Source: an uncultured bacterium | GTDB taxonomy: Bacteria; Fidelibacterota; Marinisomatia; Marinisomatales; UBA1611 | DNA length: 40,793 bases | Direction: 5' to 3' | NCBI GenBank assembly: GCA_964498175.1 | Contig: CAZCHA010000003.1 | Coordinates: 1 to 40,793 of the forward strand | Part shown: positions 318 through 25,561 of the stretch, in pieces | Position numbering within the stretch: position 1 is the first letter of the stretch | Layout of the letters: every line of letters starts with the position of its first letter | The notes under the pieces: generated by a model | The model's input: the letters and a program-made list of their open reading frames with translations, nothing else | What the model was told of the DNA's origin: nothing | Databases searched by the model: none | Position numbers and translations under genes: made by a program

Positions 318-318
318 A

Positions 319-8248: not shown

Positions 8249-10664
8249 ATTTTATATAATAATAGGACTGGCTGGTTGGTTAATTGGTCAAACTGTTCCA
8301 AGTATCCACCAAACCCAATTGGAATACTATAACCAAAATTATATTCTTCCTGAATTACATAATATAGATCCTATCAAACCAAAGGTTGTACGAGATCGTA
8401 TACCATCTAGAGAGGTCTTTGGCTATCACCCTTATTGGATGGGGACTTCTTGGCAAAATTATAATTTTGATCTCATATCTACTTTGGCCTATTTCAGCGC
8501 TGAAGCAAACACCAATGGAAGTTTGGGGAATCTTCACGGATGGCCTATTACAGGTTTGATTAACGAAGCACATGATCACGGCACAAATGTTGTTTTATGT
8601 GTCACACTATTTAGTAGCAGTGGAATTGAAACTTTACTCAGCAGTGCAACCTATCGTCAAAACCTGATCGATAATCTATTAGAACAGGTGCAAGCGGGAA
8701 ATGCTGATGGTGTAAATGTTGATTTTGAATCTTTCCCTGCCTCTCAAAAAGAGAATATGGTTACATTTATAACAGATCTTACCGAAACGTTTCATTCTGA
8801 GATTCCCGGTTCACAAGTGACGCTGGCCATGCCGGCGGTGGATTGGAATGATGCCTGGGATTATAATGCATTGGCAACAATCAGTGATGGTCTCTTCATC
8901 ATGGGGTACGCATATCATTGGAGTGAGAGTTCTACGACAGGACCTGTGTCGCCATTGACCGGTCCCGGATACACACTTTCTTGGACAGTGATGGATTATT
9001 TGGAAAAAACCAATTTTCAAGCAGACAAATTGATCTTGGGTATACCTTACTATGGATTCGAATGGCCAACTACATCTAACACACCAGGTGCAGCAACTAC
9101 AGGAACTGGAGTTTCAAAAACATACTCTGAAATGGAACCACTTGCCCTTTCCTTTGGAAAACAATGGCATGAATCTTCCCAAACACCCTGGTATTATTAC
9201 CAAGATTCAAATTGGAATCAAGGGTGGTATGATGATAGCCTCTCTCTTTCATTGAAATATGATTTTGCCCTTTATCATGATTTGAAAGGCATCGGCATGT
9301 GGGCTTTGGGTTACGACGGTACCAACCCGGAACTATGGGAACTCCTTTATGCCAAATTTAGTGGAGGATTACCTCCCACTTCTCCAACTGATCTATATAT
9401 TAAAAATATTGGAGGGGGTGAAATTCAACTCGATTTTAACGGCGCAAGCGGGGCCGATGAATTTATTGTTTTAAGAGATTATCTTGAAATTGAATATGAT
9501 ATTGACACTATTGGTATTTTTTCCGAAACCCCAATAATAATTAGTGATTTATCAGAAGATGAAACATATTTCATTAAAGTCGTTGCAACAAATATCTTTG
9601 GGAATAGTGACCCAACTGAAATGCTGGGTGTAGTTCCAACGGATGAACCAATTTCTTGCTTAATTGTGAATGGGTTTGATAGAATGGCAGGGACAAATAA
9701 TACGTTTGATTTTATTCGCCAACATGGTAGTGCACTGCATATAGCAGGATATTCATTTGATTCGGCGTCCAATGAAGCAGTGATAAATGGAAACATTTCG
9801 TTAACCGATTACAATTATGTTGATTGGATTCTTGGCGAGGAGGGAACATCCACCAGTGCTTTTACAGGTACAGAGCAAACCCTAGTGAAATCTTTTTTAG
9901 AAAGTGGAAGATTTTTATTCGTCTCCGGATCAGAAATTGGTTATGACCTTTCCGGACAAGGCAGTACATCGGATAACCAATTTTATACTAATTATTTAAA
10001 AGCAGATTATATCTCCGATGCAGCTGGCAGTAATGTTTATAGTGGATATGGCGTTAATAATAGCATCTTGGACGGTATCACCGGACTTACCTTTGATGAT
10101 GGATCCCAAGGTACCTACGATGTTGATTGGCCCGATGGAATTTTTCCAGTAGGAGATGCTTCGATTTGTGCAAAATATGACGGGGTTAATTATTCAACAC
10201 AAGGTGGCCTGGGAGTTGAATATGTAGGCACATTTGGATCAGGAAATGTAGATGGTGGGTTGGTATATCTTGCAGTTGGATTTGAAACAATTTACCCCGA
10301 ATCTAAAAGAAATGAGCTAATGATGGAGATAATGAATTTTTATCAATCACAACTGGAAATTGGAGATAATTTACCAGCCCCAATGCCATCTTCCCTTGTA
10401 ATCGATAAATTGTATCCCAATCCAACTAATACTTCCCTCACAATTAAATTTTCATCAATGTTAAACGAGACAATTATAATAACCATTACAGATATTTTGG
10501 GTAGAGTTGTTAAACAATCAACCCTGACTTCAATCCAAAATAAAACCAGTTTTACCTGGGATGGGTTAGATCAAAAAGGTCAACCAAGTCCGACAGGCTT
10601 ATATTTAGTTTCTATCAGTAATGGAAAAACAATTGAATCCAGGAAAGTTACTTTATTAAAATGA
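8217..10664 (+). CDS. Secreted multidomain GH18-family hydrolase (GH18 + Fn3-like + uncharacterised ~235-aa domain + T9SS CTD)
   Basis: GH18 blocks are GYHPYWMG, NADGVNVDFES (acid pair D-x-E), IPYYGFEW and GIGMWALGYDG. An Fn3-like segment spans roughly aa 385-475. The CTD is LYPNPTNTSLTIKF...GLYLVSI...KVTLLK. The start is uncertain: TTG 8217 overlaps lysA by 32 nt, and GTG 8238 is an alternative. Confidence 0.75.
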   Translation: MKIFFQVVIFRFYIIIGLAGWLIGQTVPSIHQTQLEYYNQNYILPELHNIDPIKPKVVRDRIPSREVFGYHPYWMGTSWQNYNFDLISTLAYFSAEANTNGSLGNLHGWPITGLINEAHDHGTNVVLCVTLFSSSGIETLLSSATYRQNLIDNLLEQVQAGNADGVNVDFESFPASQKENMVTFITDLTETFHSEIPGSQVTLAMPAVDWNDAWDYNALATISDGLFIMGYAYHWSESSTTGPVSPLTGPGYTLSWTVMDYLEKTNFQADKLILGIPYYGFEWPTTSNTPGAATTGTGVSKTYSEMEPLALSFGKQWHESSQTPWYYYQDSNWNQGWYDDSLSLSLKYDFALYHDLKGIGMWALGYDGTNPELWELLYAKFSGGLPPTSPTDLYIKNIGGGEIQLDFNGASGADEFIVLRDYLEIEYDIDTIGIFSETPIIISDLSEDETYFIKVVATNIFGNSDPTEMLGVVPTDEPISCLIVNGFDRMAGTNNTFDFIRQHGSALHIAGYSFDSASNEAVINGNISLTDYNYVDWILGEEGTSTSAFTGTEQTLVKSFLESGRFLFVSGSEIGYDLSGQGSTSDNQFYTNYLKADYISDAAGSNVYSGYGVNNSILDGITGLTFDDGSQGTYDVDWPDGIFPVGDASICAKYDGVNYSTQGGLGVEYVGTFGSGNVDGGLVYLAVGFETIYPESKRNELMMEIMNFYQSQLEIGDNLPAPMPSSLVIDKLYPNPTNTSLTIKFSSMLNETIIITITDILGRVVKQSTLTSIQNKTSFTWDGLDQKGQPSPTGLYLVSISNGKTIESRKVTLLK

Positions 10665-11899
10665 TCCACCGGATTTCCTTTCTCCTTTTTCTCACTTTCT
10701 TTTTTGCACAAGAAAATCGCTCATCTATTCATCAAGAACAGTTGAAACACTTTAATAAAAAACCACCTCCCCCTGTTGAAAAAATTCATGTTTTAACAGG
10801 CTTGGATGTGCTGTTGGAAAAAAAGAAAAATATCATTCAGGGAAAGTCTATTGCACTGGTTACCAATCATAGCGGAATTGATAGATTTGGTATTTCTAAT
10901 TATAAGCGACTCATGACCATGAACGATGTGGATTTGAAAGTTATATTTACTCCTGAGCATGGGCTTTTTGGGAATGTCGATGCTGGAGCGGAAGTCTCCT
11001 ATTCAGAAAGTAATTTGGATTTACCTAAAGTCATTAGTCTCTATGGAAAAACTCGGAAACCTTCAATTGAAATGCTCGAAGGGGTTGATTTAATTCTCTA
11101 TGACATTCAAGATATTGGTGCTCGATTTTATACCTATATCACCACGCTAGGATTAGTCATGGAATCTGCTGCAGAATTAGAAATTTCAGTGATCGTTTTG
11201 GATCGTCCTAATCCAATTCGAGGCGATATTATTGAAGGACCAATCTTGAAATTGGATTATCAAACCTTTGTGGGTTATTACCCAATCCCAATTCGTTATG
11301 GTGGAACTGTAGGCGGCTTAGCCCAAAAAATAATTGCGAACAAATGGATCTCCCCTGTCCCGATTGTAGAAGTGATTGAAATGGAGGGTTGGGAACAAAG
11401 CCTTTGGTATGATGAAACAGACTTGCCTTGGATAAAACCATCTCCTAATATTCCTGATTTAGAAACTGCTATTATTTACCCTGGAATGTGTATCATAGAA
11501 GGAACAAATTTGAGTGAAGGTCGTGGAACTCAAAATCCATTTAAACAAATTGGTGCACCATGGGTAGATGGAAAACTTTTATCTCAAAAACTCAATAAAT
11601 TTAACTTACCGGGAGTTGTATTTAAGCCGGCCTTATTTACACCTATTTCCATTCCAGGAATGTCCAAACACCCAAAATTTCAGGATGAAAAATGTTCCGG
11701 GATCGAAATCGTTATCTTAGATCGAAATAATTATAACAGTGTAAATACAGGTATAGTTACTTTATTTATTTTTTACTCCATGTATTCCGAGAATATTACA
11801 TTTAAAGAAAAACACTTAAACCGACTGTGGGGTAGTGACCAATTATTAAAGGGAATAAAGAAAGGTACTTCGCCCCTGGATTTCATTCAATCCTACTAA
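10661..11899 (+). CDS. namZ: DUF1343 / NamZ-family exo-beta-N-acetylmuramidase, exported
   Basis: Signal peptide. Hallmark DUF1343 blocks are TGLDVLLE..GKSIALVTNHSGID, FTPEHGLFG, LYDIQDIGARFYTYITTLG, VLDRPNP, SPNIPD and EGTNLSEGRGT. The ATG overlaps the upstream stop (ATGA). Confidence 0.8.
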   Translation: MIHRISFLLFLTFFFAQENRSSIHQEQLKHFNKKPPPPVEKIHVLTGLDVLLEKKKNIIQGKSIALVTNHSGIDRFGISNYKRLMTMNDVDLKVIFTPEHGLFGNVDAGAEVSYSESNLDLPKVISLYGKTRKPSIEMLEGVDLILYDIQDIGARFYTYITTLGLVMESAAELEISVIVLDRPNPIRGDIIEGPILKLDYQTFVGYYPIPIRYGGTVGGLAQKIIANKWISPVPIVEVIEMEGWEQSLWYDETDLPWIKPSPNIPDLETAIIYPGMCIIEGTNLSEGRGTQNPFKQIGAPWVDGKLLSQKLNKFNLPGVVFKPALFTPISIPGMSKHPKFQDEKCSGIEIVILDRNNYNSVNTGIVTLFIFYSMYSENITFKEKHLNRLWGSDQLLKGIKKGTSPLDFIQSY

Positions 11900-11909
11900 G
11901 AAAAATACA

Positions 11910-13184
11910 CTATTTTATTAAAACTAGTTTCACAGTTTCTAAACCCGATTCATTTTCCGGATGGGCAAAGTATAAACCATTACCTAATTTTTGGCCAAGA
12001 TCATTTTTTCCATCCCAACTTAAATACTTAATTCCAGGTATCAAGTCGGTGCCGTATAAAGTTTTTACCTTTCTCCCAAGAATATCAAAAATATCTATAT
12101 ATAAGTCAGCACCGTTAGTTAATTCGATGCTAAATGTAACTTGGGTTGAAAACGGGTTTGGAAAGGCCGGTTGAAAAAATGAAATTGGAGGAATCTCCAT
12201 AGATTCCATATAATTAACAATATCTATGCGAATATTCGGCAATTCATACCAAACATTATCACCAGGACATGCAGTATTACCAAAATAATCCCTATGCCCA
12301 AGAAGTGATGCTGGATTTTGCTGGTAAGCATCTGAAATCCAACCAAATAATTGCATAATAGATTCTCGACTTTCAGATGTCATTGTCTGAAAACAATTCT
12401 CTTCGGGTGGATGGTAACACCCCAATAGGCAGACACCTATATTTCCTGAATTTGCACCACCTACATGTGACCCAACAACGGTTTCAGGTCGACCCTGATA
12501 AATATTGCCTCCACGATCAACAAGAAAATGATAGGCAATATCATTCCATCCTCGTCCATTCTGATGAAAATCTTGGATCCACCTAACTTGACTTTTACCT
12601 TCAGCTAAATTTTCTGCACTGCAACAGGCTGCATGATGAAGTGTCAACTTATCAATATAAGGATGGTTACTATAAGAATATTTTGGAGGTTCTGCTCCCC
12701 ATTCTTCTCTAGTAACAATGGATGGTTTTGGAACATCACCATCCATTATATTTATGGGGCGTGAAGTAATTTGAATCAATTCTAAATCTGGAATAAATCC
12801 AATCACTGATTTAATTTGTAATAATTCAGTAGCAACTATAGTATAGGAAAATTGACTTAATTTTTCCTTTGATTCATTGGTAAATGTTGCAAAGGTTGTA
12901 CCCGAGTTTTCGCTTTGGAATAAATTCCCCGAATAAGATATAGATTGACCTCTCCTATTAATAATAGAAAATGTAACACGAATAACAGATTCACTTTCAA
13001 TCTCAAGCGCACCACCTTCTAATAAATAATCTATTTGAGAAGATTTTCCTTCATGTATGAAGAAAGATAAACTGTCATGGACTTCAAGAGCAGGATATTC
13101 GTCAATTAATGGACCCAAATCCCCAACTTGGGAAAATATAAAAGAAAATAATAATAAAAATTGAAATGAGAAAATTCGTTTCAA
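11910..13184 (-). CDS. Secreted N-acetylmuramoyl-L-alanine amidase (Amidase_2 / PGRP fold) with T9SS CTD
   Basis: Signal peptide. Amidase_2 blocks are LTLHHAA, WNDIAYHFLVDRGGNIYQGR, GSHVGGANSGNIGVCLLG and GHRDYFGNTACPG. The CTD is AFPNPFSTQVTFSI...GLYFA...VKLVLIK. Confidence 0.8.
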   Translation of the reverse strand: MKRIFSFQFLLLFSFIFSQVGDLGPLIDEYPALEVHDSLSFFIHEGKSSQIDYLLEGGALEIESESVIRVTFSIINRRGQSISYSGNLFQSENSGTTFATFTNESKEKLSQFSYTIVATELLQIKSVIGFIPDLELIQITSRPINIMDGDVPKPSIVTREEWGAEPPKYSYSNHPYIDKLTLHHAACCSAENLAEGKSQVRWIQDFHQNGRGWNDIAYHFLVDRGGNIYQGRPETVVGSHVGGANSGNIGVCLLGCYHPPEENCFQTMTSESRESIMQLFGWISDAYQQNPASLLGHRDYFGNTACPGDNVWYELPNIRIDIVNYMESMEIPPISFFQPAFPNPFSTQVTFSIELTNGADLYIDIFDILGRKVKTLYGTDLIPGIKYLSWDGKNDLGQKLGNGLYFAHPENESGLETVKLVLIK

Positions 13185-13204
13185 TTCAATAATATATTTA
13201 TAGC

Positions 13205-14230
13205 TTAAAAATTAAACCCTATTGATAGTCGCTCTACAGAACCTAATGGCCCAAAATCTGAAATTGAATAATCCAATTTCAAGATGGTAGCAGTTCTCCA
13301 AATACGATAATCTAATCCTACACCAAATGTTGGGCCTTCAATTGACTCTTCTTTAAATAAAGAAGGAATCCCTGTACGTACGGAAACAAGATTATTAAAA
13401 ACTGCTTCCATGCCCATATTCACATACTCAGAATTATCATTAGGGTGTAATGCATCTATGCCATAGGTTAATCTTAAATTATTTGAATTAATGAATTCGC
13501 CAGAAATACCAACGCGGAAAAACAATGGTATTGGAAAAGATTCTGTTTCAAGATTTGCATTGATAAACTCAACATTCCCTTGATTCACTGGATCAGGATC
13601 CACACTGATTTTTTGATCTCTACCCTCTAATTTCATTTTTCCGCCATAATTACTTATAGATGCACCAAGCCTTATTCCTTTAAATGGTGTTGTAAATAAC
13701 GCACCAATATCCCCTGCAAAAGTACTCGCCGTTGCGTGCCAAATATTCTGCTGGATATATTTGATGGAGCCACCTAAGGAAAATTTATCCGTCAAGGAAC
13801 GGGCATAGCTTAGATTAACTGCTAAATCATTAGTAGAAAATTTTTCACCGGTTCCTTCTGGTTTTACAACAGTTCTTACAAGATCTTCCGGTGAAGAAAG
13901 GCTGATGATACCAAATCCTAATACACCTGCCCCAGGAAGAGAAATTCCTGTAAAAATATGTTGATGTTTCATAGTAGCGAGCCAATCATGGTTTCCAAAC
14001 TGAATACCAATACCTTGGATGCTTGCTAATCCAGCTGGATTCCAAAACATACTACTCAAATTGGATTTCAGGCCAACACCAGCATTGCCCATTGCGGTAC
14101 TGCGTGCATCCACACCTATTTTTAGAAACTGAGCCACTGTCGTACCCGATTTGGTAATAATTTGATTGTTTCCAAACTGTCCCAATAGGACAGTTGATAT
14201 GAACGTCATTTGAAATAATATTTTTATCAT
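13205..14230 (-). CDS. PorV/PorQ-family outer-membrane beta-barrel (T9SS shuttle-like)
   Basis: Signal peptide. The N-terminal GTTVAQFLKIGVDARSTAMGNAGVGL...FWNPAGLA is the characteristic PorV/PorQ opening. The rest shows an alternating beta-strand pattern and ends in ...LSIGFNF. It overlaps the upstream gene by 4 nt. Confidence 0.65.
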   Translation of the reverse strand: MIKILFQMTFISTVLLGQFGNNQIITKSGTTVAQFLKIGVDARSTAMGNAGVGLKSNLSSMFWNPAGLASIQGIGIQFGNHDWLATMKHQHIFTGISLPGAGVLGFGIISLSSPEDLVRTVVKPEGTGEKFSTNDLAVNLSYARSLTDKFSLGGSIKYIQQNIWHATASTFAGDIGALFTTPFKGIRLGASISNYGGKMKLEGRDQKISVDPDPVNQGNVEFINANLETESFPIPLFFRVGISGEFINSNNLRLTYGIDALHPNDNSEYVNMGMEAVFNNLVSVRTGIPSLFKEESIEGPTFGVGLDYRIWRTATILKLDYSISDFGPLGSVERLSIGFNF

Positions 14231-17200
14231 TTGATAACGGCAAACCTTCCAATTTTTTCACCCACGCCTGGTGCATTAACATGATAAATATATACACCAA
14301 AAGCCAATGGAAAATTGTCTTTTGTGGTCAAATCCCAATGTTCCTGCCCATTATTCATCTCAGTATCGTGATTTAATGTTTGGACATGGTCACCTGAAAC
14401 TGTATAAATAGAAATAGTGCATTGCATTGGTAAATGATTAAAATAAATTTTTCGGGAGCCTCTATCTTGAGGGTTCTGCAAATCCAATTGTTCTAAGACA
14501 TTGGTTACAACATAGGGGTTTGGTACAACAGAAATATTTTTCAATTCATCATGTGCTTTATTGCTATTATAATTACTAGCGACCGTTGAAAAAGTCATTG
14601 TATCACTCGTAGCAAATGGTCGATGTGTTCCGATGAAAAATACATCTCCATTTTCAGGAGATATTGTATCACCAAACTCAGGTTGAAAAAAAGTAAATTC
14701 CCACTTAGGCCTGAGAGGATCACCCTCCATAATGATTGCACGATCACCCGGTGTCCAAAGGCTATCTGACTCTCCTTCTTCAATTATGGTTACTTCTTCT
14801 TGAGCCAGCTCTCTCCCAACTGTTACATCCCAAACTTGAAAATTCATCCTTGAATAGCCGAAAGATGGATGCAACGCGCTACTACTGGTATCAGCGATTT
14901 CATCAAAAAACCTAATCTCATAATCTCCAGGATACATGAATTGGTCTGCACCATTAAATGGTATAACATCACCAATCCAATTTGACCTAGACGAAGATGA
15001 CCAGCCCGTACTTGATTGATCCAAAGCCAACTCTACATCCTGAACTGTAATATTAATCCCATCAAAAATTGGATTTAATTGTTCGGAGTTTACATGTTCA
15101 CTTTCAATAAATGGAAAATAGGTATACGATATGGTATAAATTTGACCATCTGACATTGTCCCTGAAGGTATCCCCCTAATTTTCCCAATATCATTTAATA
15201 TTTCATAATCAGTGCCCTGAATATATTCAGTCTCATTTTCATCTATAACGTGTACAGATTCACTAACAATATTCTCTTTTAACAAACCCACAAATTGATC
15301 TAATCTTATTGTTATTTTTTCTTCAATGGGCGTTAAATCTCTCAGACTATAGCGTGTAGGTGATTCTTTGAAGGTTAGCTGAAACATATTGTCATTTTCT
15401 ACTTCATCTGGACCAACAATTTCTAAGTGAACGGTAGCTGTGGACACGCCTGAAGGATGCGCAATAAATCCATTGATACTACCAGGTACATACCCTGTAG
15501 ATGGTGATCTCGGGATGACCCTCCTTGTATTTACATCAAGAATTAGCTCATTTGTTTCAGGGTTAACTGTAATAGTTTTGGAACATTCTGTAGGTGGTAT
15601 TTGTAAATCCACATCACCATGATCATAAGAAACAACAGTATAGTAGTAAGTTTGACCATTAATCACATTATTTGAATCGATAAACGAATGAACCAGCCCT
15701 GTATTATCACCTAAATTATAATGAGTCCCTCTACCGGAATACACTACAGAACTGAGACCATAGTAATCATTTTCAAGATCAAATCTTGCAGGTGCTCCAT
15801 TAACCATTTTTAATGGTTCAAAAAGAAATTTAGTACCAAAATCATCTGTAATTGTTTGTTGATCCAAAAATTGTGGATCCGTACTTCTATATATCACATA
15901 GCCCTCAAAATCATATTGATCTGATATAGGATCAATAGACTCTTCCGCCTTGTTATCCCAAAATAAGGTGACCTGTTCATCCCCAGGAACAGCAGTAATG
16001 ATAGGTTTCTCAGGCGGTTTAGCGAATTGGTAATTCCTTTCATAAATATCCTGTGCTGTAATAGCATTCAAAGTAAGATCATCATGGTCTTCTCCAACGA
16101 GTAACGCAATAGAGAATCTTCTGGTTTCACCTGCAGGGAGGTCAATAGGCCCTGAATTATAAATAAATACATAATCTCCAGCCTGGGTGGCATTTGCAGA
16201 ATCAAAAACTCCTGGCTGTAAAAAATCATTAAATACACGATCATCAGCAGCAATTGTTGTTCCCGAAAATGATGGAGACGAAAAACCGGTTAGCCCCACC
16301 ATATCTGCTTCATCTAAATCGGTCCATTCATAATTCGGTTCACCCGGTGCACGAATATCATATTGTTTATTACAATCTATTGGGGCCGTCGGTACTCCAT
16401 CACCCTCACCACAATCACCTGTGTTTGGAACACCATCTATACCAATATCATCATTTTCAACATCCCAGTCATTATCATCATCTTCATTATTATTTCTACT
16501 TTCATCAGTCATTCCATCATTATCATTATCTAAACCATCATAAGGATTGCCAGGACTTTCTAAAAACTTATACCCAAAAAAACCAGGGTTCCTGGCACTT
16601 CCACTTGCGCTACCATCTTCATCCCAACAATAAACCATATTTAATTCATGGTCAAAATAGGATAAATCATCACTCCAATCACTTGGGCCTCCAATATGAG
16701 GATCACCCCACATACCAAATATCACTTCATGAAGATCCTTTTCACTTTTATTTGTTACTTTATAGATTAGAAAAATAATATCTTCTGCTAATGGATTTGC
16801 CCATTGGTAATACCGATATTCGATCTGTAAACCCAAACCCTTTCGCGAAGAATCATCTGGAAAGGGATAATATTCAAACTCTTTGTTTCTTCGATCATCA
16901 CAAACAAAAAATGCTTCTTCATCTGCATTGGATGCACCTTGTCTTAAATCCCCTGGCCAAACATAATCTTTTAGATTGGGATTATACCAATCCTCTGCCC
17001 AACTATCAGGCTTTCCGTCAAAATCACGATCTATATCGCTAGATGTTGGAATTTTTTCAGAATTCGGATCCGCAAAATAAATGCCATTATCACTGTGTGA
17101 CAATGGCTCCCAAGTCCAATATTCTGACCCATCTGGAGATCGTTCAGGGTCTGTTACCAAACCATCACTAATGACCCTGGCAAACCAAGTTGTGTCCCCA

Positions 17201-17607
17201 TTTTCTACTTTTGGATAAGCATCCGGGTGACTATTGGGTTTCACCGGAACTTCAGCACAAATAAACGGCCCAAACTCATACCCATATCCCAAACCTTCCC
17301 AAATAATATCTGTGATTCGATTACCGGGCCTAGATATAGAACCATAATTCCAAATCTCGGATGTAATCTTATTCCCTGTGATAATTGCATATTGGCGGCG
17401 TAAAATCTGTTCATCCTCCTCTAAAATGCGGGCACGATTTCTTTCTGTCCAACGATAATACCGCTCAAACTTCGACTGACTCCATTCTTTCTTAGGGCCA
17501 TCTTTGAAATCTTTATCTAATAGAAATGGAAAAGCTGCATTGGTTAGATTACCAAAGATTAGAGCCACTCCAATCAAAAAACTTAGATGTAGATTTTTTG
17601 GACTCAT
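14227..17607 (-). CDS. Large (1126 aa) exported protein of unknown function: acidic Ca-binding-like repeats, Fn3-like segment, variant CTD-like C-terminus
   Basis: Signal peptide. An Asp/Asn-rich block DGLDNDNDGMTDESRNNNEDDDNDWDVENDDIGIDGVPNTGDCGEGDGVPT (nt 16378..16545) resembles thrombospondin-type-3 or dockerin Ca sites. An Fn3-like segment reads YVIYRSTDPQF...YYYTVVSYDHGD. The C-terminus VVPNPYVV...ISIYTVSGDHV...GVYIYHV...RFAVIK resembles a T9SS CTD with an insertion. It has 4-nt overlaps with both neighbours. Confidence 0.7.
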   Translation of the reverse strand: MSPKNLHLSFLIGVALIFGNLTNAAFPFLLDKDFKDGPKKEWSQSKFERYYRWTERNRARILEEDEQILRRQYAIITGNKITSEIWNYGSISRPGNRITDIIWEGLGYGYEFGPFICAEVPVKPNSHPDAYPKVENGDTTWFARVISDGLVTDPERSPDGSEYWTWEPLSHSDNGIYFADPNSEKIPTSSDIDRDFDGKPDSWAEDWYNPNLKDYVWPGDLRQGASNADEEAFFVCDDRRNKEFEYYPFPDDSSRKGLGLQIEYRYYQWANPLAEDIIFLIYKVTNKSEKDLHEVIFGMWGDPHIGGPSDWSDDLSYFDHELNMVYCWDEDGSASGSARNPGFFGYKFLESPGNPYDGLDNDNDGMTDESRNNNEDDDNDWDVENDDIGIDGVPNTGDCGEGDGVPTAPIDCNKQYDIRAPGEPNYEWTDLDEADMVGLTGFSSPSFSGTTIAADDRVFNDFLQPGVFDSANATQAGDYVFIYNSGPIDLPAGETRRFSIALLVGEDHDDLTLNAITAQDIYERNYQFAKPPEKPIITAVPGDEQVTLFWDNKAEESIDPISDQYDFEGYVIYRSTDPQFLDQQTITDDFGTKFLFEPLKMVNGAPARFDLENDYYGLSSVVYSGRGTHYNLGDNTGLVHSFIDSNNVINGQTYYYTVVSYDHGDVDLQIPPTECSKTITVNPETNELILDVNTRRVIPRSPSTGYVPGSINGFIAHPSGVSTATVHLEIVGPDEVENDNMFQLTFKESPTRYSLRDLTPIEEKITIRLDQFVGLLKENIVSESVHVIDENETEYIQGTDYEILNDIGKIRGIPSGTMSDGQIYTISYTYFPFIESEHVNSEQLNPIFDGINITVQDVELALDQSSTGWSSSSRSNWIGDVIPFNGADQFMYPGDYEIRFFDEIADTSSSALHPSFGYSRMNFQVWDVTVGRELAQEEVTIIEEGESDSLWTPGDRAIIMEGDPLRPKWEFTFFQPEFGDTISPENGDVFFIGTHRPFATSDTMTFSTVASNYNSNKAHDELKNISVVPNPYVVTNVLEQLDLQNPQDRGSRKIYFNHLPMQCTISIYTVSGDHVQTLNHDTEMNNGQEHWDLTTKDNFPLAFGVYIYHVNAPGVGEKIGRFAVIK

Positions 17608-20417
17608 AAGTTAATGCTCCAACCTATAGTCACTAATCTTGGCGGGCTATAATAATCCGGTCGGTTATGATATTCATCCCAAGTATGTACACCCGGTTCT
17701 CCATAATGACTTTTAAATGCTTCTGTCTCTTGGAGTGAACGATTTACATAAGTATAACCGGATCGACCAGTATCGGTATAAACATATTTTTCATTTCGAG
17801 TATCAAACACATTATAAACTTTTATGAATAATTCAAATTCCAGTTTGGCCATAGAAATTACTTTATAATACCTCATATCCAGTGACTTTTGAACTGGTTT
17901 CCGTGAACTGTTCGGGTAAGGGACATAATTTGCATTTGGAATATTTGGAGTATAAGGCCAGCCAGTACTCAATTTTCCGATAAAGCTGAGCCCCCATCCT
18001 TTTGGACCCGGTTCAGTAATTGTGATGGTAGAATTGAATACATGACTTTGATCCCATGACAAAGAAACAATTTTCTTTTCTTCCTCTTCACCTGTCAATG
18101 CATTGAAAAAGAAAGACCCACTATTTGTACTATTTCCTTCAGTAGTTTGGTAAGAATAATCTAGAAAAGCAGACAATCTCGATATAGGATCCCATCTTTT
18201 TGTTAAGCTGAAGGTAATCCCTTTCACCATGGCATAATCTTTATTTAAATAAATTGCATAGTCGGATGGACCATATACAGGGGAATTATAATGGATCGAT
18301 TGCAGTGCTAAAAGATTCCGAATATCCTTATAAAAAATACTGCTATTGATTGCCAAATGGCGACTCAATAGCTGCTGTAACCCAAATTCATACATTACGG
18401 TCTTTTCGGGTTTTAAATTACCATACCCAATACTCGGTGAAAGTCCTGCACCGAAAATACTTGTGAGAAATAATTTCCTAAGTGTGGGCATTTGATAAAA
18501 ATGACCGTATGAAAAATGTAAAATACCTTCATCCGTAATGGGGAATGCCACACCGATTCTGGGTGACCACATTGTTTTTTTCTTACTTTCCGATTCATCT
18601 CCTTCTGGGTCAATCAAATCATTGATATGCTTGGTATTTGGTTCGAATGTATCATAACGAATTCCTGCATTCATGATAAAACTCTCATATTCCAGTTTAT
18701 CCTGTAAATAAGAAGAATAAAAAGTCGCATTCTCAGTATAATAATTATGGGAAGGTGAACCATTTTCAGTAGGGATGGTTGGTATCTTATAGGTGTTCCC
18801 ATCAAATAACACAGAAAAGTTTCTTTCATTCAAATTATCATTTCTAAATTGAATGCCGGCTTTGACTTCATGGCGGGTAGTAATCTGCGATGTAATATCA
18901 AATTTACCACCTAGAGATTCAGAGTCTCTATAAGAATGTCCTCGATTAGATCCTCCAAAGGAGAATGTGGCTGAACTAGGGCTCCCTCTTATATTAATAG
19001 TTGAAGCATAATTTGAGTTAGGGAGAATATAAATATAACTGTCAACTATGGTTATTTCCTGATCCCCAATTGTATAAACACCAGGAGTATTTATTAATAA
19101 TGCCATATCTTCATCATCTCCGAATCCTGAACCACTTGTAAATGGAATAGCACTTTCCAAGCTGATAGGCGAGAACTGAAATGCCTTATAATCTGTTTTA
19201 TTTATAAAAATATGCCCTTCATAAAATGTTTTACTCCCTAAAGCTTGGTTTATTTTCAGAGAAAGATTATTATTGTTAGATCGATAGGTTGATATACCAT
19301 CAGGATTATATTTATAAAAATGAGAATAAGATTGAGACTCTCCCTGGCTCCCTAAATATTGTGTCGATAATTTAAGTCTTGGGGTTATCTTATAAGTGAG
19401 TTTCACTAACTGGTTGAATGATTCACTGGGATTCATTGCAACTAGACTACTATCCCCCCCCATTTGTATATACCATGTTTCCGTTTCAAAATTGGCATAA
19501 TCTTGAACAGTATGTTCACGAATACCATAGAGATATCCTTTCTGCCCAGTAAATTTAGAACTTGAGTTAAATGTTATTTTACCTTTTGTAAAGGGGATTG
19601 GCCCACTCAAATATCCTTCCCACGTTTGACGATTCAATAAGTCATAATCATCAATATTCGTATAAAGATCCGTATCATTAGAGTATCGATCACCTGTGTA
19701 CATAGTAAAACTACCATCGTAACCCCTACCACCTTCCTTGATCTGGATATTAACAATTCCACTCATGGCATTTCCATATTCTGCATTAAAAGTACCACTT
19801 ACCACTTTTAATTCTTGTAATGCTTTGTTGGATACATTTATAGAGAGTCCATTAGTAAAAAAGGGATTTGCAACCGAAATACCATCAATAAAATACCCCA
19901 CTTCATTACTTCTCCCGCCACGTATATGCAATTCACCACCGGCACCCTGATTAACGCCAGCCTGAGCAGTAAGGACACCTAGAAAGGACTCCACCGGCAT
20001 AGCGCTAATTTCTTCTGCAGTTGTAACCTTTTGCGATGATGTTAGATCTTTGTGTATGAGTGGTCTGTCAGCAGTAACAACTACCTCTTCCCCTTCAATA
20101 ACTTCTTGGACTAATGTAAAATTCTGTATTGATGTGCGGCCTGTATTTACAATTAAATCAGTTACTTTAACGGTTGCATATCCGATATAGGATGTTTTAA
20201 GTGTATATGTTCCCGGACGAACATTAATAATAATGAATTGTCCATTTACATCTGAATCGGCCCCAATTCCTTGACCTTCAACTATAATGCTTACACCTAG
20301 TAATGGTTCGCCAGAATCTTTCTCTACTACAATACCTGATATTTTTCCACTTTCGGCAAGAATGAAGGAGCCAAAAAGTAATAATGTTAATATCCTTAAT
20401 ATTGTTTTTTTTACCAT
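17604..20417 (-). CDS. TonB-dependent outer-membrane receptor with N-terminal carboxypeptidase-regulatory-like domain
   Basis: Signal peptide. The CarboxypepD_reg-like segment is GKISGIVVEKDSGEPLLGVSIIVEG...GQFIIINVRPGTYTLKTSYIGY. Plug-domain blocks are MPVESFLGVLTAQAGV and LHIRGGRSNEVGYFIDGISV. A long beta-barrel-like C-terminal region follows. No STN or anti-sigma signalling extension is visible, and there is no SusD-like neighbour. Confidence 0.85.
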   Translation of the reverse strand: MVKKTILRILTLLLFGSFILAESGKISGIVVEKDSGEPLLGVSIIVEGQGIGADSDVNGQFIIINVRPGTYTLKTSYIGYATVKVTDLIVNTGRTSIQNFTLVQEVIEGEEVVVTADRPLIHKDLTSSQKVTTAEEISAMPVESFLGVLTAQAGVNQGAGGELHIRGGRSNEVGYFIDGISVANPFFTNGLSINVSNKALQELKVVSGTFNAEYGNAMSGIVNIQIKEGGRGYDGSFTMYTGDRYSNDTDLYTNIDDYDLLNRQTWEGYLSGPIPFTKGKITFNSSSKFTGQKGYLYGIREHTVQDYANFETETWYIQMGGDSSLVAMNPSESFNQLVKLTYKITPRLKLSTQYLGSQGESQSYSHFYKYNPDGISTYRSNNNNLSLKINQALGSKTFYEGHIFINKTDYKAFQFSPISLESAIPFTSGSGFGDDEDMALLINTPGVYTIGDQEITIVDSYIYILPNSNYASTINIRGSPSSATFSFGGSNRGHSYRDSESLGGKFDITSQITTRHEVKAGIQFRNDNLNERNFSVLFDGNTYKIPTIPTENGSPSHNYYTENATFYSSYLQDKLEYESFIMNAGIRYDTFEPNTKHINDLIDPEGDESESKKKTMWSPRIGVAFPITDEGILHFSYGHFYQMPTLRKLFLTSIFGAGLSPSIGYGNLKPEKTVMYEFGLQQLLSRHLAINSSIFYKDIRNLLALQSIHYNSPVYGPSDYAIYLNKDYAMVKGITFSLTKRWDPISRLSAFLDYSYQTTEGNSTNSGSFFFNALTGEEEEKKIVSLSWDQSHVFNSTITITEPGPKGWGLSFIGKLSTGWPYTPNIPNANYVPYPNSSRKPVQKSLDMRYYKVISMAKLEFELFIKVYNVFDTRNEKYVYTDTGRSGYTYVNRSLQETEAFKSHYGEPGVHTWDEYHNRPDYYSPPRLVTIGWSINL

Positions 20418-20710
20418 GCCATAAATTTTATTGTTTACCTAGGATTTCCAGTTTGAATTGAAAAGAAATCTATATTAGAACCCACTGTTTTTTCAACTTT
20501 AATGTAATATTTGTTCCATTATTAGAATCTATCCTTTCTCACGAACCATAAGTTTAACAAAAGAGGGAAAATATCAATAGAGTTTTCTCTCTTAAAAATA
20601 AAAATTGAATAATGCATAACCATTTCCAGTAGTTAAACCTTAATTTTGAGAATGAAAATGGGTGTATTCCCTTGAGCTAAAATATTATTCGTAAAATTTA
20701 TAGATTCCAC

Positions 20711-21364
20711 ATGCTAAATAAGTCTCTCATGGTGATAGATCCTTCTGTCTATCAGCCGGAAATATCATCCTTTAATCATATAAATTCCCTAACGGGCATT
20801 AGCTGTACGTACCATCTTCCGGCTCTTACGAATGAAAAAAGTATTGATGATGAATTAGTTAATTCATGCGGAATTATCCTCATGGGCAGCGCTTCATCAG
20901 TTCATGATAAATCTGAATGGCAAAAAAGGCTATCCGATAATATGGTTAGAGCAATCGATTTGGAAATTCCAGTTTTAGGAATTTGTTATGGACACCAACT
21001 CATCGCTCACTTGTTTGGAGGGGCTGTGGATTTCTTATGGAACAGACAAAAGATGCTGGGCATCCGAAATGTTCATATCCAGGAAACTGAATTATGGGGT
21101 GAACCAATATCTGGGCCACTCATATTTTCTCATAAAGAAGGTGTGACCACTTGTCCTAAAGATTTTTCTATTATTGCGTCCAGTGATGATGTGGAGATCG
21201 AAGGAATTGCACATAACTCAAAACCGATATGGTCTTTCCAACCCCATATCGAAGCTACGTATCATTTTGCAAAGAGAGTAAAAATATCAAATGATGATTT
21301 CAAAAAAGCATTCCGGTTTGGGATCCAATTGTTAAATAAATTTATCCACCATCTAGACAATTAA
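20711..21364 (+). CDS. Class I glutamine-amidotransferase-like (GATase1 / peptidase C26-like) stand-alone protein
   Basis: The nucleophile elbow is PVLGICYGHQLIA and the His-Glu pair lies in FQPHIEAT. It is 217 aa, has no synthase partner domain and no signal peptide. Confidence 0.65.
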   Translation: MLNKSLMVIDPSVYQPEISSFNHINSLTGISCTYHLPALTNEKSIDDELVNSCGIILMGSASSVHDKSEWQKRLSDNMVRAIDLEIPVLGICYGHQLIAHLFGGAVDFLWNRQKMLGIRNVHIQETELWGEPISGPLIFSHKEGVTTCPKDFSIIASSDDVEIEGIAHNSKPIWSFQPHIEATYHFAKRVKISNDDFKKAFRFGIQLLNKFIHHLDN

Positions 21365-21368
21365 TTAA

Positions 21369-22769
21369 ATGACATTTTATAAAACCACTTTTTCAATCAT
21401 TCTTTTTTGGATTATTGCCTGTGCACCGCCTAAAGTGCTACTCGATAATCCCGGAATTCCAACCTTGAAAAAAGAGATTAATACTCTTATAGTAGATTCT
21501 AATCTTGATATCAATATGAGTTTAAAAATGACATCTCTCACTTCAGGGAAAACGTTGTATGCTCTCAATAGCCATAAAAAACTCATACCAGCCAGTAATA
21601 ATAAATTGTATACAAGCGCAGCCGCTTTAGTCTATTTGGGCACAGACTATACATTTGAAACGTCAATATATCAGAATCAGAAAAATATTTATCTGGTTGG
21701 CGATGGAGATCCTGACTTTTCTTTAGATAAATTGGATTCCCTAGCAGAAATTGTTTCAACGAGCATAACATCTATTGATACATTATTTGTGGATGAAAGT
21801 ATAATGGATACACTACATTACGGCGAAGGTTGGATGTGGGATGAGGGTCATTGGTGGTATGCTGCTCCAGTGAGCGCGCTTTCTTTGAATGATAATTGTG
21901 TCAAGTTTTTTGTCCAAGCCGGAAAAATGGGAGAACCAGTTACTATTCAAGCCCACCCATCAACAAACTATATACAAATAGATAATCAATCTATTACAGT
22001 AAATGACACCGTTGATTTTCAAAAGTTTAAGATTGATCGCGATTGGGCTGGCCGAACAAATCGATTTACAATCACAGGAGAAAAATTAATCAAGGCACCT
22101 GAGGATACAATCATTCGAAATATTTATCATCCCCCCCTTTTTGCTGGAACTGTATTAAGGGAAATGTTAGAAAAATATGGTACAACTGTTAAAAAGGTAG
22201 CTATTGGAAATAGTACAAAATCTTCTATTAAATTGACATCCCATATTTCAGATTCTCTTATTTACTCGGCTGAAAATCTCATGAATGAAAGTGATAATCT
22301 TACTGCAGAATTATTTATAAAAACATTGGGAGTCACAGATAGAATACCGGGAAACTGGAAGAATGGACTCAACGTTGTAAAATCTTTTTTAGCCGATACT
22401 ACAACGATTGATACAACGACCATTCGCTTGGTTGATGGATCAGGGGTTTCTAGATACAATTTAACATGTGCTGACCATTTTATAGATTTATTGACCTATA
22501 TGTATCAAAGTCCATTCAATAATGATTTTTTAAAAATACTTCCACACGGTGGTTCAGAAGGAACATTAAAAGATCGAATGAAAGTTCATGGTGATCGTAT
22601 TCGAGCCAAGACCGGCCATTTATCTGGTGTAAGTTGTTTATCAGGATACGCATTTTCTCCCACTTATGGACCTGTAGCCTTTTCTATGTTGATGAATGGG
22701 TATATTGGTTCATCCAGAGAATATCGCCAACTCCAAGACCGAATTTTAGGGCTGTTGATTCATGATTAA
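21369..22769 (+). CDS. dacB: D-alanyl-D-alanine carboxypeptidase/endopeptidase, PBP4 type (peptidase S13), lipoprotein
   Basis: Lipobox (WIIACA). SxxK in LIPASNNKLYTSAAAL. SxN in VDGSGVSRYN. KTG in AKTGHLSGVSCLSGY. The length and the insertion domain between SxxK and SxN are typical of PBP4. Confidence 0.85.
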   Translation: MTFYKTTFSIILFWIIACAPPKVLLDNPGIPTLKKEINTLIVDSNLDINMSLKMTSLTSGKTLYALNSHKKLIPASNNKLYTSAAALVYLGTDYTFETSIYQNQKNIYLVGDGDPDFSLDKLDSLAEIVSTSITSIDTLFVDESIMDTLHYGEGWMWDEGHWWYAAPVSALSLNDNCVKFFVQAGKMGEPVTIQAHPSTNYIQIDNQSITVNDTVDFQKFKIDRDWAGRTNRFTITGEKLIKAPEDTIIRNIYHPPLFAGTVLREMLEKYGTTVKKVAIGNSTKSSIKLTSHISDSLIYSAENLMNESDNLTAELFIKTLGVTDRIPGNWKNGLNVVKSFLADTTTIDTTTIRLVDGSGVSRYNLTCADHFIDLLTYMYQSPFNNDFLKILPHGGSEGTLKDRMKVHGDRIRAKTGHLSGVSCLSGYAFSPTYGPVAFSMLMNGYIGSSREYRQLQDRILGLLIHD

Positions 22770-23691
22770 ACCACCTGCTCTAAAACCAAATGCCACTATC
22801 GGCATTTTGAGTCCATCTTCATGGATGAATGAGTCAGATTTGAAATTGGCCATAGCTATATTTGAACAAAAGGGCTACCATCTTGTTTTGGGCGAAAGTG
22901 TATTTTTGAAAGATCATACATTTGCAGGCATGCCAGAACAAAGAGCCAAGGATATTAATGGCATGTTTGCCAATCCAAATATTGATGCTATTATTTGTGC
23001 TCGTGGAGGATATGGCGCTAATCGCGTTTTACCTTTACTCGATTATGATTTAATTAAAGCGAATCCGAAAATATTTATGGGGTATAGCGACGTGACAGCA
23101 TTTCTTACATCCATCACACAAAAAACCGGACTTGTTACCTTTCATGGTCCCATGTTGTCTAGCTTTAAAAAGGGTATGGTGGATTATAATTTTGATTTAA
23201 TAGAAAAAACTTTATTCGGCTATGAATCTATAACAATTCAATCACCACATGAATTACAACACCGTGTTTTAAAATCCGGAAAAGCTGTAGGCCCCCTTTG
23301 GGGCGGGAATATGTGTTTATTGGTTAATCGATTAGGAACAGCAGATCAACTCAATACGAATGGTACTATTCTATTTATTGAGGATATTGATGAATATTTA
23401 TATGCATTCGACCGCATGTTGGTCCACATGAAAGAAGCGGGAATGTTTCAAAATATTACTGGATTAATTATTGGAGAACTGGTGGATATGAAAGATCAAG
23501 ATATACCTTTCGGAAAATCAACGGATGAAATAGTCATGGATGTTTGTAGCGATTTGGATATTCCGATTATTTCCAATTTTCCCTGTGGACACGGTGTTTT
23601 TCAATCCACTTTGCCCATTTCCATCCCAGTTCAATTGGATGCAAAATTCAATTCATCAACATTAACATTATTGGATTCACCCGTAAAGTAA
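22762..23691 (+). CDS. ldcA: LD-carboxypeptidase (peptidase S66, muramoyl-tetrapeptide carboxypeptidase LdcA-like)
   Basis: Blocks are IGILSPSS, ARGGYGANR, the nucleophile block MGYSDVTAF, FIEDIDEYLY and FPCGHG (Ser-Glu-His triad context). No signal peptide. It overlaps dacB by 8 nt. Confidence 0.8.
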   Translation: MIKPPALKPNATIGILSPSSWMNESDLKLAIAIFEQKGYHLVLGESVFLKDHTFAGMPEQRAKDINGMFANPNIDAIICARGGYGANRVLPLLDYDLIKANPKIFMGYSDVTAFLTSITQKTGLVTFHGPMLSSFKKGMVDYNFDLIEKTLFGYESITIQSPHELQHRVLKSGKAVGPLWGGNMCLLVNRLGTADQLNTNGTILFIEDIDEYLYAFDRMLVHMKEAGMFQNITGLIIGELVDMKDQDIPFGKSTDEIVMDVCSDLDIPIISNFPCGHGVFQSTLPISIPVQLDAKFNSSTLTLLDSPVK

Positions 23692-23700
23692 GGAAATGAT

Positions 23701-24297
23701 ATGTTGAATTATATTTGGTTTGGAATGATGTTTATTGGCGTTGTCGTCGGTGCATTCACAGGGAACATTGATGCGGTAACAGAAGCGGCTATTGATATGG
23801 CAAAAGTAGCAGTAAATCTAGCAATTGGACTCATCGGAATTATGGCTCTCTGGCTAGGCATCATGAAAATAGCGGAAGAATCTGGACTGATTCGTGTCAT
23901 TGCCAAAGGTTTACGTCCTATAACGATTCGTCTTTTTCCTGACGTTCCGGAAGATCACCCTGCGATTGGGTCCATCGTATTAAATATGGCAGCCAATATA
24001 TTAGGATTGGGAAATGCGGCTACGCCGCTTGGGCTTAAAGCCATGGAAGAACTCCAAGAATTAAACCCGAACAAAGAAACAGCCACCAATGCCATGTGTA
24101 CCTTTTTGGCAATCAATACATCCAGCGTACAGTTAATTCTTCCAGCCACTGTGGTAGCACTCATGGGCACCCATTCCAGTCAGATATTTATTACAACTAT
24201 TGTGGCAACCGGAATGTCTACGATTGCTGCAATAGTTGCAGTAAAGTTTTTAGAAAAGCAGAAACGATTTTCTATTACTGAAGAGCGTCAATCATGA
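23701..24297 (+). CDS. spmA: Nucleoside-recognition (Gate) domain membrane protein, SpmA-like
   Basis: 198 aa and polytopic. MLNYIWFGMMFIG...AKVAVNLAIGLIG...NILGLGNAATPLGLKAM matches the SpmA pattern. AAGGAA lies upstream of the ATG. Confidence 0.7.
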   Translation: MLNYIWFGMMFIGVVVGAFTGNIDAVTEAAIDMAKVAVNLAIGLIGIMALWLGIMKIAEESGLIRVIAKGLRPITIRLFPDVPEDHPAIGSIVLNMAANILGLGNAATPLGLKAMEELQELNPNKETATNAMCTFLAINTSSVQLILPATVVALMGTHSSQIFITTIVATGMSTIAAIVAVKFLEKQKRFSITEERQS

Positions 24298-24842
24298 TAA
24301 ACTTATTTGTCAGTGGTGTGAATGAATTCTCAAAATACATTATTCCATTTCTATTGGTGGGCATCCCATTTTATGGATTGGTTTTCAAAAAAGTAAAAGT
24401 ATATGAAACTTTCGTAGAAGGTGCAAAGGATGGTTTTACTATTTCCGTCAGAATTATCCCATATCTTGTGGCAATACTTGTTGCTATTGGCATGTTTCGT
24501 GCTTCCGGCGCCCTGGATTTATTGCTTAATTTCCTTTCACCTGTTTTAACTCTAATCGGATTTCCGCCAGAGAATCTTCCTTTAGCGCTTATGCGGCCAT
24601 TATCCGGTAGCGGGTCTTTGGGATTATTAACCGATTTGGTCAATATCCATGGTCCTGACTCTCTTATTGCTAAAATTGGTGCCACCATGTTTGGTTCCAC
24701 AGAAACTACATTTTATGTATTGGCTGTTTATTTTGGATCGGTAGGGATTCGCAAGACACGTCATGCGTTGGTAGCAGGATTATTTGCTGATGCAGTAGGT
24801 GTTTTGAGTGCCGTTTACATATGTCAATTCTTCTTTGGCTAA
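24294..24842 (+). CDS. spmB: Nucleoside-recognition (Gate) domain membrane protein, SpmB-like
   Basis: 182 aa and polytopic. Blocks are FVEGAKDGF, MRPLSGSGSLG and MFGSTETTFYVLAVYFG. It overlaps the spmA-like gene by 4 nt. Confidence 0.7.
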   Translation: MINLFVSGVNEFSKYIIPFLLVGIPFYGLVFKKVKVYETFVEGAKDGFTISVRIIPYLVAILVAIGMFRASGALDLLLNFLSPVLTLIGFPPENLPLALMRPLSGSGSLGLLTDLVNIHGPDSLIAKIGATMFGSTETTFYVLAVYFGSVGIRKTRHALVAGLFADAVGVLSAVYICQFFFG

Positions 24843-24886
24843 ATGAATAGGCATCAAGGTCGCTAAGAATCACGAAGATAATATAT

Positions 24887-25561
24887 ATGATTAGAGTTCT
24901 AAGTTTCTTAGTTATCATCGCTTGTTGGGGATGTGGCAATTCTGGTTCAATCGTTTCAAAAGAAACAATCTCCAAACATGATTTAGTGGATATACAAGAA
25001 ATGGATTCAACTCTTTTGGTAGAACTAAAATATTCCACCACTGATAATTTTATGAAAACGGATGTCTATGGTGATTTAGAAATATGTTACATGCGAAGAG
25101 TTTCTGCTGAAATGCTTGGGAAGGCTCATTCCATTTTAAAAGAGGCCCATCCTGATCTTCGATTGTTAATTTATGATGGACTTCGCCCCCGTTCGATCCA
25201 ATGGATCCTTTGGAACACTTTAAGCGATGTTCCGGAATCAGAAAGGTCTAATTTCGTGGCGAATCCCAGATCGGGGTCGATTCATAATTTTGGTGCTGCG
25301 GTTGATCTTACAGTTGCTCATAAAAATGGGACACCGCTAGATATGGGAACTCACTACGATTATTTCGGTGATTTGGCATTCCCAAGACTGGAAGATTCTT
25401 TGAAAGTGGTTGGAGATTTAACACTAGAACAGGTTCATAACCGTCTTATTTTAAGAGATGCCATGACCCAGGCTGGATTTAGCCCTATCACCACAGAATG
25501 GTGGCATTTTGATTCATTCCCCTATAAAGAGACGAAACAGAAATTCACAATAATAGAATAA
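24887..25561 (+). CDS. D-alanyl-D-alanine dipeptidase (VanX/DdpX type, peptidase M15D) with lipoprotein signal
   Basis: IYDGLRPRSIQ, the zinc-site block SGSIHNFGAAVDLT, and EWWHFD are VanX-family hallmarks. The N-terminus MIRVLSFLVIIACWGCG looks like a signal peptide with a lipobox. Confidence 0.8.
   Translation: MIRVLSFLVIIACWGCGNSGSIVSKETISKHDLVDIQEMDSTLLVELKYSTTDNFMKTDVYGDLEICYMRRVSAEMLGKAHSILKEAHPDLRLLIYDGLRPRSIQWILWNTLSDVPESERSNFVANPRSGSIHNFGAAVDLTVAHKNGTPLDMGTHYDYFGDLAFPRLEDSLKVVGDLTLEQVHNRLILRDAMTQAGFSPITTEWWHFDSFPYKETKQKFTIIE

Follow-up and report, generated by a model that had tools for sequence, protein, structure and literature searches.

In Bacteroidota, porU and porV are adjacent genes. 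Proteins with an uncleaved C-terminal domain (CTD) for secretion by the type IX system (T9SS) are retained at the cell surface by cognate PorV-like barrels, as in the pairs PorZ-PorQ and PorU-PorV, and an anchoring of type-B CTD cargo on PorP/SprF has been proposed (PMC10202324). In the alginate locus of Rhodothermus marinus, genes for a TonB-dependent receptor (TBDR; 2805 nt), a protein with a T9SS type-A sorting domain and a PorV/PorQ-family protein (1056 nt) sit among alginate lyases, the latter two being listed as hypothetical and left uninterpreted (PMC9530828, Fig. 2). Here we analyze a stretch of 40,793 nt (the whole of it is called “the window” below) from an uncultured bacterium of the Marinisomatales (contig CAZCHA010000003.1, assembly GCA_964498175.1), in which a TBDR gene is followed by the genes for a large secreted protein, here named BIG, and for a barrel of the PorV/PorQ family. 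This triad is genuinely a conserved unit in at least six phylum- or class-level lineages of the Fibrobacteres-Chlorobi-Bacteroidetes (FCB) group, and it plausibly encodes an outer-membrane complex for nutrient acquisition that operates without SusD, here for peptidoglycan debris.

The triad belongs to four consecutive genes on the minus strand, in the order TBDR, BIG, barrel, amidase. The positions are those of the open reading frame (ORF) list:

17604..20417, minus strand: TonB-dependent receptor, 937 aa
14227..17607, minus strand: BIG, secreted protein, 1126 aa
13205..14230, minus strand: PorV/PorQ-family barrel, 341 aa
11910..13184, minus strand: amidase with T9SS CTD, 424 aa

The two junctions within the triad are 4-nt overlaps of the sequence ATGA, at 17604..17607 between TBDR and BIG (...AAC TTA TGA / ATG AGT) and at 14227..14230 between BIG and the barrel (...ATC AAA TGA / ATG ATA). 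The amidase gene starts 20 nt past the stop codon of the barrel gene, and the operon probably ends with it. Its product, which contains the Pfam domains Amidase_2 and Por_Secre_tail, is a secreted N-acetylmuramoyl-L-alanine amidase with a canonical type-A CTD. An earlier note on this DNA had reported both overlaps, the CTD-bearing amidase 20 nt downstream and the lack of a SusD-like gene, and all of this was found again. A family scan of the 27 non-overlapping window ORFs of at least 120 aa, which left out the 28th listed ORF (16254..16778, plus strand, 174 aa, antisense within BIG), yielded no SusD-like family. An adjacent gene for a SusD-like lipoprotein is also absent, as the gene after the TBDR is that of BIG, which has no lipobox.

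Behind its Sec signal, the receptor begins with a CarboxypepD_reg domain at the N-terminus, to which a TonB-box-like strand, the plug and a barrel of the 22-strand type are added. The earlier description as a TBDR with a CarboxypepD_reg domain agrees with Pfam, which placed CarbopepD_reg_2 at aa 26-114, Plug at aa 123-220 (PF07715, 38.2 bits, cut-off 23.9) and TonB_dep_Rec_b-barrel at aa 467-853 (PF00593, 103.4 bits, cut-off 27), and detected no N-terminal signalling (STN) domain. The N-terminal domain and the plug are separated by a hydrophobic strand, EEVVVTADRPLIHKDLT (aa ~109-125), the motif of which is kept in 59 of 59 TBDR orthologues; judged by its position and motif, we call this strand TonB-box-like. 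The cut-off of the SusC/RagA model TIGR04056 was not reached (63.8 bits, cut-off 368.25), and the match was confined to aa 25-206.

The third protein matched the PorV/PorQ family model NF033709 over its full length (194.8 bits, cut-off 90; aa 30-341 on positions 1-326 of 326), and a 94%-identical protein is named “PorV/PorQ family protein” by NCBI. Its sole sequence match in the PDB is PorV of Flavobacterium johnsoniae (6h3i_F, E 2e-9). The scores were below the cut-offs of the equivalog models for PorV (NF033710, 75.1 versus 250 bits) and PorQ (NF033711, 66.8 versus 220 bits) and of the PorV2 model (59.1 versus 325 bits), and the barrel thus represents a separate subfamily, neither PorV nor PorQ proper. 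The AlphaFold2 (AF2) model, built from 41 sequences, has 14 strands (pLDDT 82, pTM 0.76), and the first two Foldseek matches are both PorV, 8gl6_F (TM 0.69, E 1.3e-15) and 6h3i_F (TM 0.68, E 2e-12). The assignment of a PorV/PorQ-like barrel in the earlier note is therefore upheld, and the outcome that the note had named as refuting, a model of FadL or another unrelated barrel without PorV similarity, did not arise. Three motifs are invariant in the barrel family, PEGTGE, GRD..DPDP..GNVEF and HPNDN.E, and all are predicted to sit in extracellular loops on the basis of the FadL/PorV topology. Invariant loop motifs are unusual for outer-membrane proteins, suggesting that the barrel has a conserved partner.

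The following features were assigned along BIG:

17536..17607, minus strand: signal peptide, aa 1-24, ending in ...GNLTNA before A, without a lipobox cysteine, read from the sequence
16288..16545, minus strand: Asp-rich loops of the DxDxDG type, aa 355-440, where the family is most conserved
15598..16020, minus strand: Fn3-like beta-sandwich with insertions, aa ~530-670, PPEKP..VTLFWD..FEGYVIYRS..NGQTYYYTVVSYD
14230..14574, minus strand: divergent type-A T9SS CTD, aa ~1012-1126, with VVPNPY, an insertion of ~20 aa, a beta-sandwich and the end ...RFAVIK

For the CTD, a profile of the last 112 residues of the BIG family was compared with a profile of 12 canonical type-A CTDs, and hhalign returned a probability of 97.2% (E 3e-11) for an alignment of 68 columns that reaches the last residue. 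VVPNPY, GVYIYH and ...AVIK are conserved in the family. The PNPY motif is located ~25 residues further upstream than usual. In the AF2 model, the beta-sandwich of the CTD spans aa 1053-1124, and the sole low-confidence segment of this domain, aa 1031-1050, which sets the sandwich apart from PNPY, coincides with the “insertion” that the earlier note had described in a putative T9SS CTD. The PorU model also gave a weak match to BIG (E 9.5e-4), confined to the CTD section of that model. The mean column identity of 56% in the CTD, versus 31% in the whole protein, would be more in keeping with a function that lasts than with a throw-away signal. A canonical Por_Secre_tail is present in five other proteins of the window, and SAR406 genomes have been reported to be rich in proteins of the Por_Secre_tail type (bioRxiv 10.1101/095471).

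To determine the distribution of the triad, one genome per species was scanned, which gave at least 596 loci, and the best 79 were analyzed. They come from Marinimicrobia/Neomarinimicrobiota, Rhodothermales, Ignavibacteriales and Melioribacteraceae, Kryptoniota, Calditrichota and KSB1. In tblastn searches with the window proteins, all three genes were found at 67 of the 79 loci, with a constant strand and the constant order TBDR, BIG, PorV-like barrel; at the remaining loci, a missing gene usually went along with a contig end or fragmentary matches. More distant BIG relatives (27-39% identity; loci L080, L081, L082, L083 and L086/L087) are likewise parts of triads, with gaps of no more than 30 nt, and by blastp all three partners are homologous to the proteins of the window; the gene order is again the same in 4 of 4 distant relatives that lie on long contigs. 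At locus L086 (6329-22341), two complete triads, the BIG proteins of which measure 1490 and 1226 aa, stand in tandem, and second copies of the triad were also found at L028, L057, L065, L073 and L075. The module has therefore been duplicated and has diverged within genomes, as SusCD pairs have. The earlier note had allowed for an adjacency by chance, which is excluded by the recurrence of the gene order across related and distant loci.

Taken together, these results suggest the following model. BIG would be secreted via Sec and then via the T9SS. Its CTD would escape cleavage, and the PorV-family barrel dedicated to it would capture and retain it, comparable to PorZ-PorQ and PorU-PorV, and BIG, a large all-beta protein probably stabilized by Ca2+, would thereby be tethered to the cell surface. 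There it would bind polymer fragments and hand them to the adjoining TBDR, which would import them with energy from TonB. We infer the anchoring of BIG by the barrel, its binding of substrate, and the docking at and hand-off to the TBDR. The substrate of the window copy is probably peptidoglycan debris, i.e. glycan strands or muropeptides. The fragments would be freed outside the cell by the CTD-bearing amidases and by the glycoside hydrolase family 18 (GH18) and GHL10 enzymes whose genes surround the triad, and the breakdown would be finished by the NamZ exo-muramidases, LD- and DD-carboxypeptidases, D-Ala-D-Ala dipeptidase, permeases and the diaminopimelate (DAP) decarboxylase-type enzyme of the same island. 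As a whole, we regard the model of a SusD-free nutrient-acquisition complex as somewhat more probable than its opposite. A wider version is proposed tentatively and with some doubt: outside the class Bacteroidia, FCB bacteria may generally take up polymers by a “utilisome” that lacks SusD and depends on the T9SS, and the window copy would be a form of it specialized for scavenging peptidoglycan. In this utilisome, a giant CTD-bearing binding protein may be held by its own PorV paralogue atop a TBDR, and the lineages covered may include Marinimicrobia/SAR406, Rhodothermales, Ignavibacteria, Kryptoniota, Calditrichota and KSB1.

The PorV paralogue could instead be a dedicated shuttle only, so that BIG would be cleaved and either released or attached to lipopolysaccharide, and need not sit on the TBDR. 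A role as shuttle between SprA and the attachment complex is the established one for PorV (PMC10202324), and the CTD of BIG, too divergent for the canonical models, might need a shuttle of its own. We nevertheless consider a mere shuttle unlikely. There is one barrel gene for each BIG gene even in the tandem triads, which, like the very high conservation of the CTD, fits a stoichiometric and lasting partnership better, and the invariant linkage to the TBDR would be left unexplained.

The next alternative concerns BIG itself, which could be a surface hydrolase or lyase of unrecognized fold, with the triad coupling extracellular cleavage to import. BIG has no Pfam or NCBIfam family above the cut-off, and no PDB relative was found by sequence or profile searches. 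A word-indexed search returned 1301 relatives, and an exhaustive search at E<=1e-3 yielded 4185 clusters (50% identity), 582 of them with E<=1e-30; when homologues were searched for a second time, with the family profile, nearly the same sequences were retrieved as in the first search, and little was gained. The labels that were viewed are “hypothetical protein” or “predicted secreted protein”, and the distant homologues, too, have a Sec signal without a lipobox. The AF2 model of BIG, based on an alignment of 24 sequences (pLDDT 78.7, pTM 0.60), is almost all-beta and ends in a beta-sandwich. The Asp-rich stretch at 16378..16545, which had been singled out in the earlier note, corresponds to aa 355-410 (DGLDNDNDGMTDES...DDIGIDG) and lies within the most conserved core of the family, where D360, D362, D364, D368, D376, D387, D391 and D398 are invariant. 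The region is modeled as coil with lower pLDDT, and its loops probably bind Ca2+, to judge by the motif. The Fn3-like segment of the earlier note also holds, as it has the strand pattern of a beta-sandwich in the model and motifs that are conserved in the family; its sequence match in the PDB, to the Fn3-like 3mpc, is sub-threshold (E 0.27).

An enzymatic function of BIG could be read from the invariant acidic or polar residues in its N-terminal 350 aa (N79, D238, R265, N286, D314, D329, E350) and from the whole-chain Foldseek search against the PDB, in which GH116 and GH94 enzymes were matched along with Fn3 arrays and PorZ (rank 41). These matches are partial and have low TM values of about 0.18-0.25, and a function is not readable from them. 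The parts of GH116 and GH94 that were matched are N-terminal, non-catalytic beta-sandwich domains (TM about 0.2), and the model of BIG contains neither an (alpha/alpha)6 nor a TIM barrel. Furthermore, the same core of BIG occurs in peptidoglycan, starch and non-catabolic loci, which argues against a substrate-specific catalytic site. A catalytic BIG is thus quite unlikely in our view. As a separate point, an identity with PorU was considered, as BIG has about the size of PorU and is encoded 5′ of a PorV-family gene. It was rejected because there is no Peptidase_C25 match and the model is nearly all-beta, and because the match to the PorU model covers the CTD part only, as it does for the amidase.

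Nearly the entire 40.8-kb window (1..40793, especially 4613..13184 and 20711..39119) reads as a peptidoglycan-catabolism island. In addition to the triad, it encodes or contains:

20418..20710: divergent intergenic region of 293 nt, 5′ of the TBDR gene, presumed promoter region of the operon according to the gene layout
two GH18 proteins with CTDs, and an AmiA-like amidase
two NamZ exo-N-acetylmuramidases
an Orn/DAP-type decarboxylase
proteins with the domain combinations Amidase_2+CTD, Amidase_3+Big_5+CTD and GHL10+CTD
an S13 DD-carboxypeptidase, an S66 LD-carboxypeptidase and an M15 D-Ala-D-Ala dipeptidase
a GATase/C26 protein and two proteins of the beta-lactamase fold
an amino-acid permease, an SSF symporter and two “Gate” (SpmA/B-like) proteins

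Scans of the operon for the sigma-70 consensus (41 found, 39.3 expected) and for intrinsic terminators (6 found, 5.8 expected) remained at chance level and located no promoter; promoters in the group of the host may be of another type than the sigma-70 consensus. Three further observations were made in the island. A 778-aa ORF beside a GH18 gene (2275..4611, minus strand) has no significant Pfam match and weak ones to PIG-L, an N-acetylglucosamine deacetylase (E 0.002), and Glucosamine_iso (E 0.016); the ORF may encode a novel fusion of an amino-sugar deacetylase and a deaminase. A 169-aa ORF (39700..40209, minus strand) aligns with GH18 over nothing but the N-terminal half of the profile (positions 1-167 of 317). 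It has no continuing ORF and may be a pseudogene or the result of a frameshift or an assembly error. The gene for a 305-aa PD40-repeat protein (33404..34321, minus strand) overlaps the start of the Amidase_3+Big_5+CTD gene (30897..33407, minus strand) by 4 nt, and a PD40-domain protein also ends the R. marinus alginate locus (PMC9530828).

At other loci, an Amidase_2 homologue is encoded 3′ of the barrel in 12 cases labeled Rhodothermales/Bacteroidetes and in two Marinimicrobia, with a weaker match at L036. Further peptidoglycan genes beside the triad are sporadic, i.e. M15 at L028, GH18 and S13 at L033, GH18 at L024, and NamZ at L032. The triad of L080 is followed by a protein with a carbohydrate-binding module (CBM20) and a CTD, a LacI regulator and two alpha-amylases, and L080 is a starch locus. 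At L083, the triad is followed by GHL10+CTD and a second TBDR. A recurrent arrangement in many lineages is a gene for an FG-GAP/VCBS propeller with a canonical T9SS CTD (~550-700 aa) directly 5′ of the TBDR gene and on the same strand, e.g. L008:1039-2889, L010:983-2857, L028:1019-2860 and 22 more loci, and also L086:4376-6058. Together with the triad it forms a four-gene unit, which is absent in the window, where a divergent GATase gene sits upstream.

Several findings weigh against a nutrient-acquisition complex. The flanks of the 77 closest loci that were sampled are mostly housekeeping genes, glycoside hydrolases are not enriched, and the only enriched neighbours are FG-GAP propellers with CTD and Amidase_2. 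FG-GAP+CTD proteins account for 25 of the 26 upstream ORFs examined and for 23 of 102 flank ORFs. A reading of the triad as similar to a polysaccharide utilization locus (PUL) therefore rests on a subset of the loci, because most of the closest relatives have no carbohydrate-active enzymes (CAZymes) in their flanks. The capture of glycans or peptides that the earlier note had proposed accordingly agrees with the catabolic loci (peptidoglycan in the window, starch at L080, and alginate in R. marinus, where the middle protein is shorter) and is not backed by most of the closest loci, which lack CAZymes. Directly 5′ of the TBDR gene, two distant loci contain a gene for a SurA/PpiD-like peptidyl-prolyl isomerase (PPIase; Rotamase; L080:3343-5043, L082:166-1839), which may hint at a dedicated folding factor. 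In addition, BIG has no recognized carbohydrate- or peptide-binding module and only weak whole-chain fold matches, its CTD has no match to PF18962 or TIGR04183 at E<=0.1, no regulator gene was recognized in the window, and the core T9SS genes (sprA, gldKLMN) lie beyond the window.

Some of these observations would be compatible with a device for surface structure, adhesion or envelope biogenesis, e.g. a T9SS-linked adhesin platform, for which import would not be the primary function and in which the TBDR-like barrel would be an anchor or a signal transducer. The FG-GAP propellers with CTD as the commonest neighbours, the PPIase genes preceding the TBDR at L080 and L082, and the scarcity of catabolic genes at most of the closest loci are all in its favor. 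In contrast, conservation extends to the plug and the TonB-box-like strand of the TBDR, which has no STN domain, and triads are found within clear catabolic loci in the window, at L080 and at L083. We rate the adhesion or envelope function of the triad, including the role it assigns to the TBDR, as improbable, to the same degree as a catalytic BIG. It is very improbable that the barrel acts independently of BIG as a channel of the FadL type through which a small product, hydrophobic or amphipathic, would pass. The FadL/Toluene_X fold, a weak Toluene_X match in Pfam (E 0.0028) and structural matches to FadL and TodX can be cited for such a channel. Against it, the barrel is clearly nearer to PorV (TM 0.69, E 1e-15) than to FadL, TodX or BamG (TM about 0.5; E 1e-8 for FadL), matches NF033709 over its full length, and is strictly paired with a CTD-bearing protein, as fits the biology of the PorV family.

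If the model of a SusD-free acquisition complex is true, it would identify the outer-membrane uptake machinery of several abundant and largely uncultured lineages. Among them is SAR406, one of the commonest groups of dark-ocean bacteria, in which the many TBDRs and proteins with a “Por sorting domain” have only been counted to date. The PorV family of the T9SS would have a second job, as permanent anchor in nutrient import, and the triad would represent an evolutionary alternative to the surface lipoproteins of Bacteroidia, i.e. SusD and the surface glycan-binding proteins. A function would also be assigned to a family of more than 4000 clusters (50% identity) that has no name, domain model or structure. 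The peptidoglycan island would offer a genetic handle on the recycling of cell-wall debris and D-amino acids in seawater, peptidoglycan being a major and poorly understood part of marine dissolved organic matter.

For comparison with known systems, the triad was set beside four of them. In the literature searched, no description of the triad or of the BIG family was found beyond the figure of the R. marinus locus, in which the genes are left uninterpreted; this is a weak negative because subscription journals were thinly covered. The SusC/SusD PULs or “utilisomes” of Bacteroidota resemble the triad in that a CarboxypepD_reg TBDR is encoded beside a surface partner. Both occur inside loci of secreted and periplasmic enzymes for one polymer, and both have several paralogues per genome, some in tandem. 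Unlike them, the triad includes neither SusD nor another surface lipoprotein, its TBDR scores below the SusC/RagA cut-off, the partner is a non-lipoprotein of 1100-1600 aa with a T9SS CTD, a PorV-family barrel is always third, and the substrate in the window is probably peptidoglycan.

The pairs PorQ-PorZ and PorV-PorU of Porphyromonas gingivalis share with the triad a 14-strand barrel of the PorV family and a large beta-rich partner, the type-A-like CTD of which is thought to be uncleaved and to serve as an anchor. In contrast to these partners, BIG contains neither a C25 peptidase domain nor the double propeller of PorZ, and the barrel fails the equivalog models of PorV and PorQ. Moreover, the pair in the triad always follows a TBDR gene and has multiple paralogues, which would be unexpected for housekeeping genes of the attachment complex. 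The pairing of type-B CTDs with PorP/SprF, e.g. SprB-SprF of Flavobacterium johnsoniae, is similar in that the cargo gene adjoins its own barrel gene, the product of which is the proposed anchor. It differs in that the CTD of BIG aligns with type A and BIG has no CHU_C match, in that the barrel belongs to the PorV/PorQ family, and in that the unit includes a TBDR.

The R. marinus alginate locus has the same gene order as the triad, while its middle protein, a possible relative of BIG, is shorter (727 aa). The new capture architecture suggested in the earlier note can be retained in part. That PorV-like barrels anchor their cognate CTD proteins is an established principle and not new (PMC10202324). 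What is new is that the coupling to a TBDR and to the unnamed family of 1100-1600-aa proteins is obligate, and the module, which combines two known principles, is apparently an undescribed variant of them.

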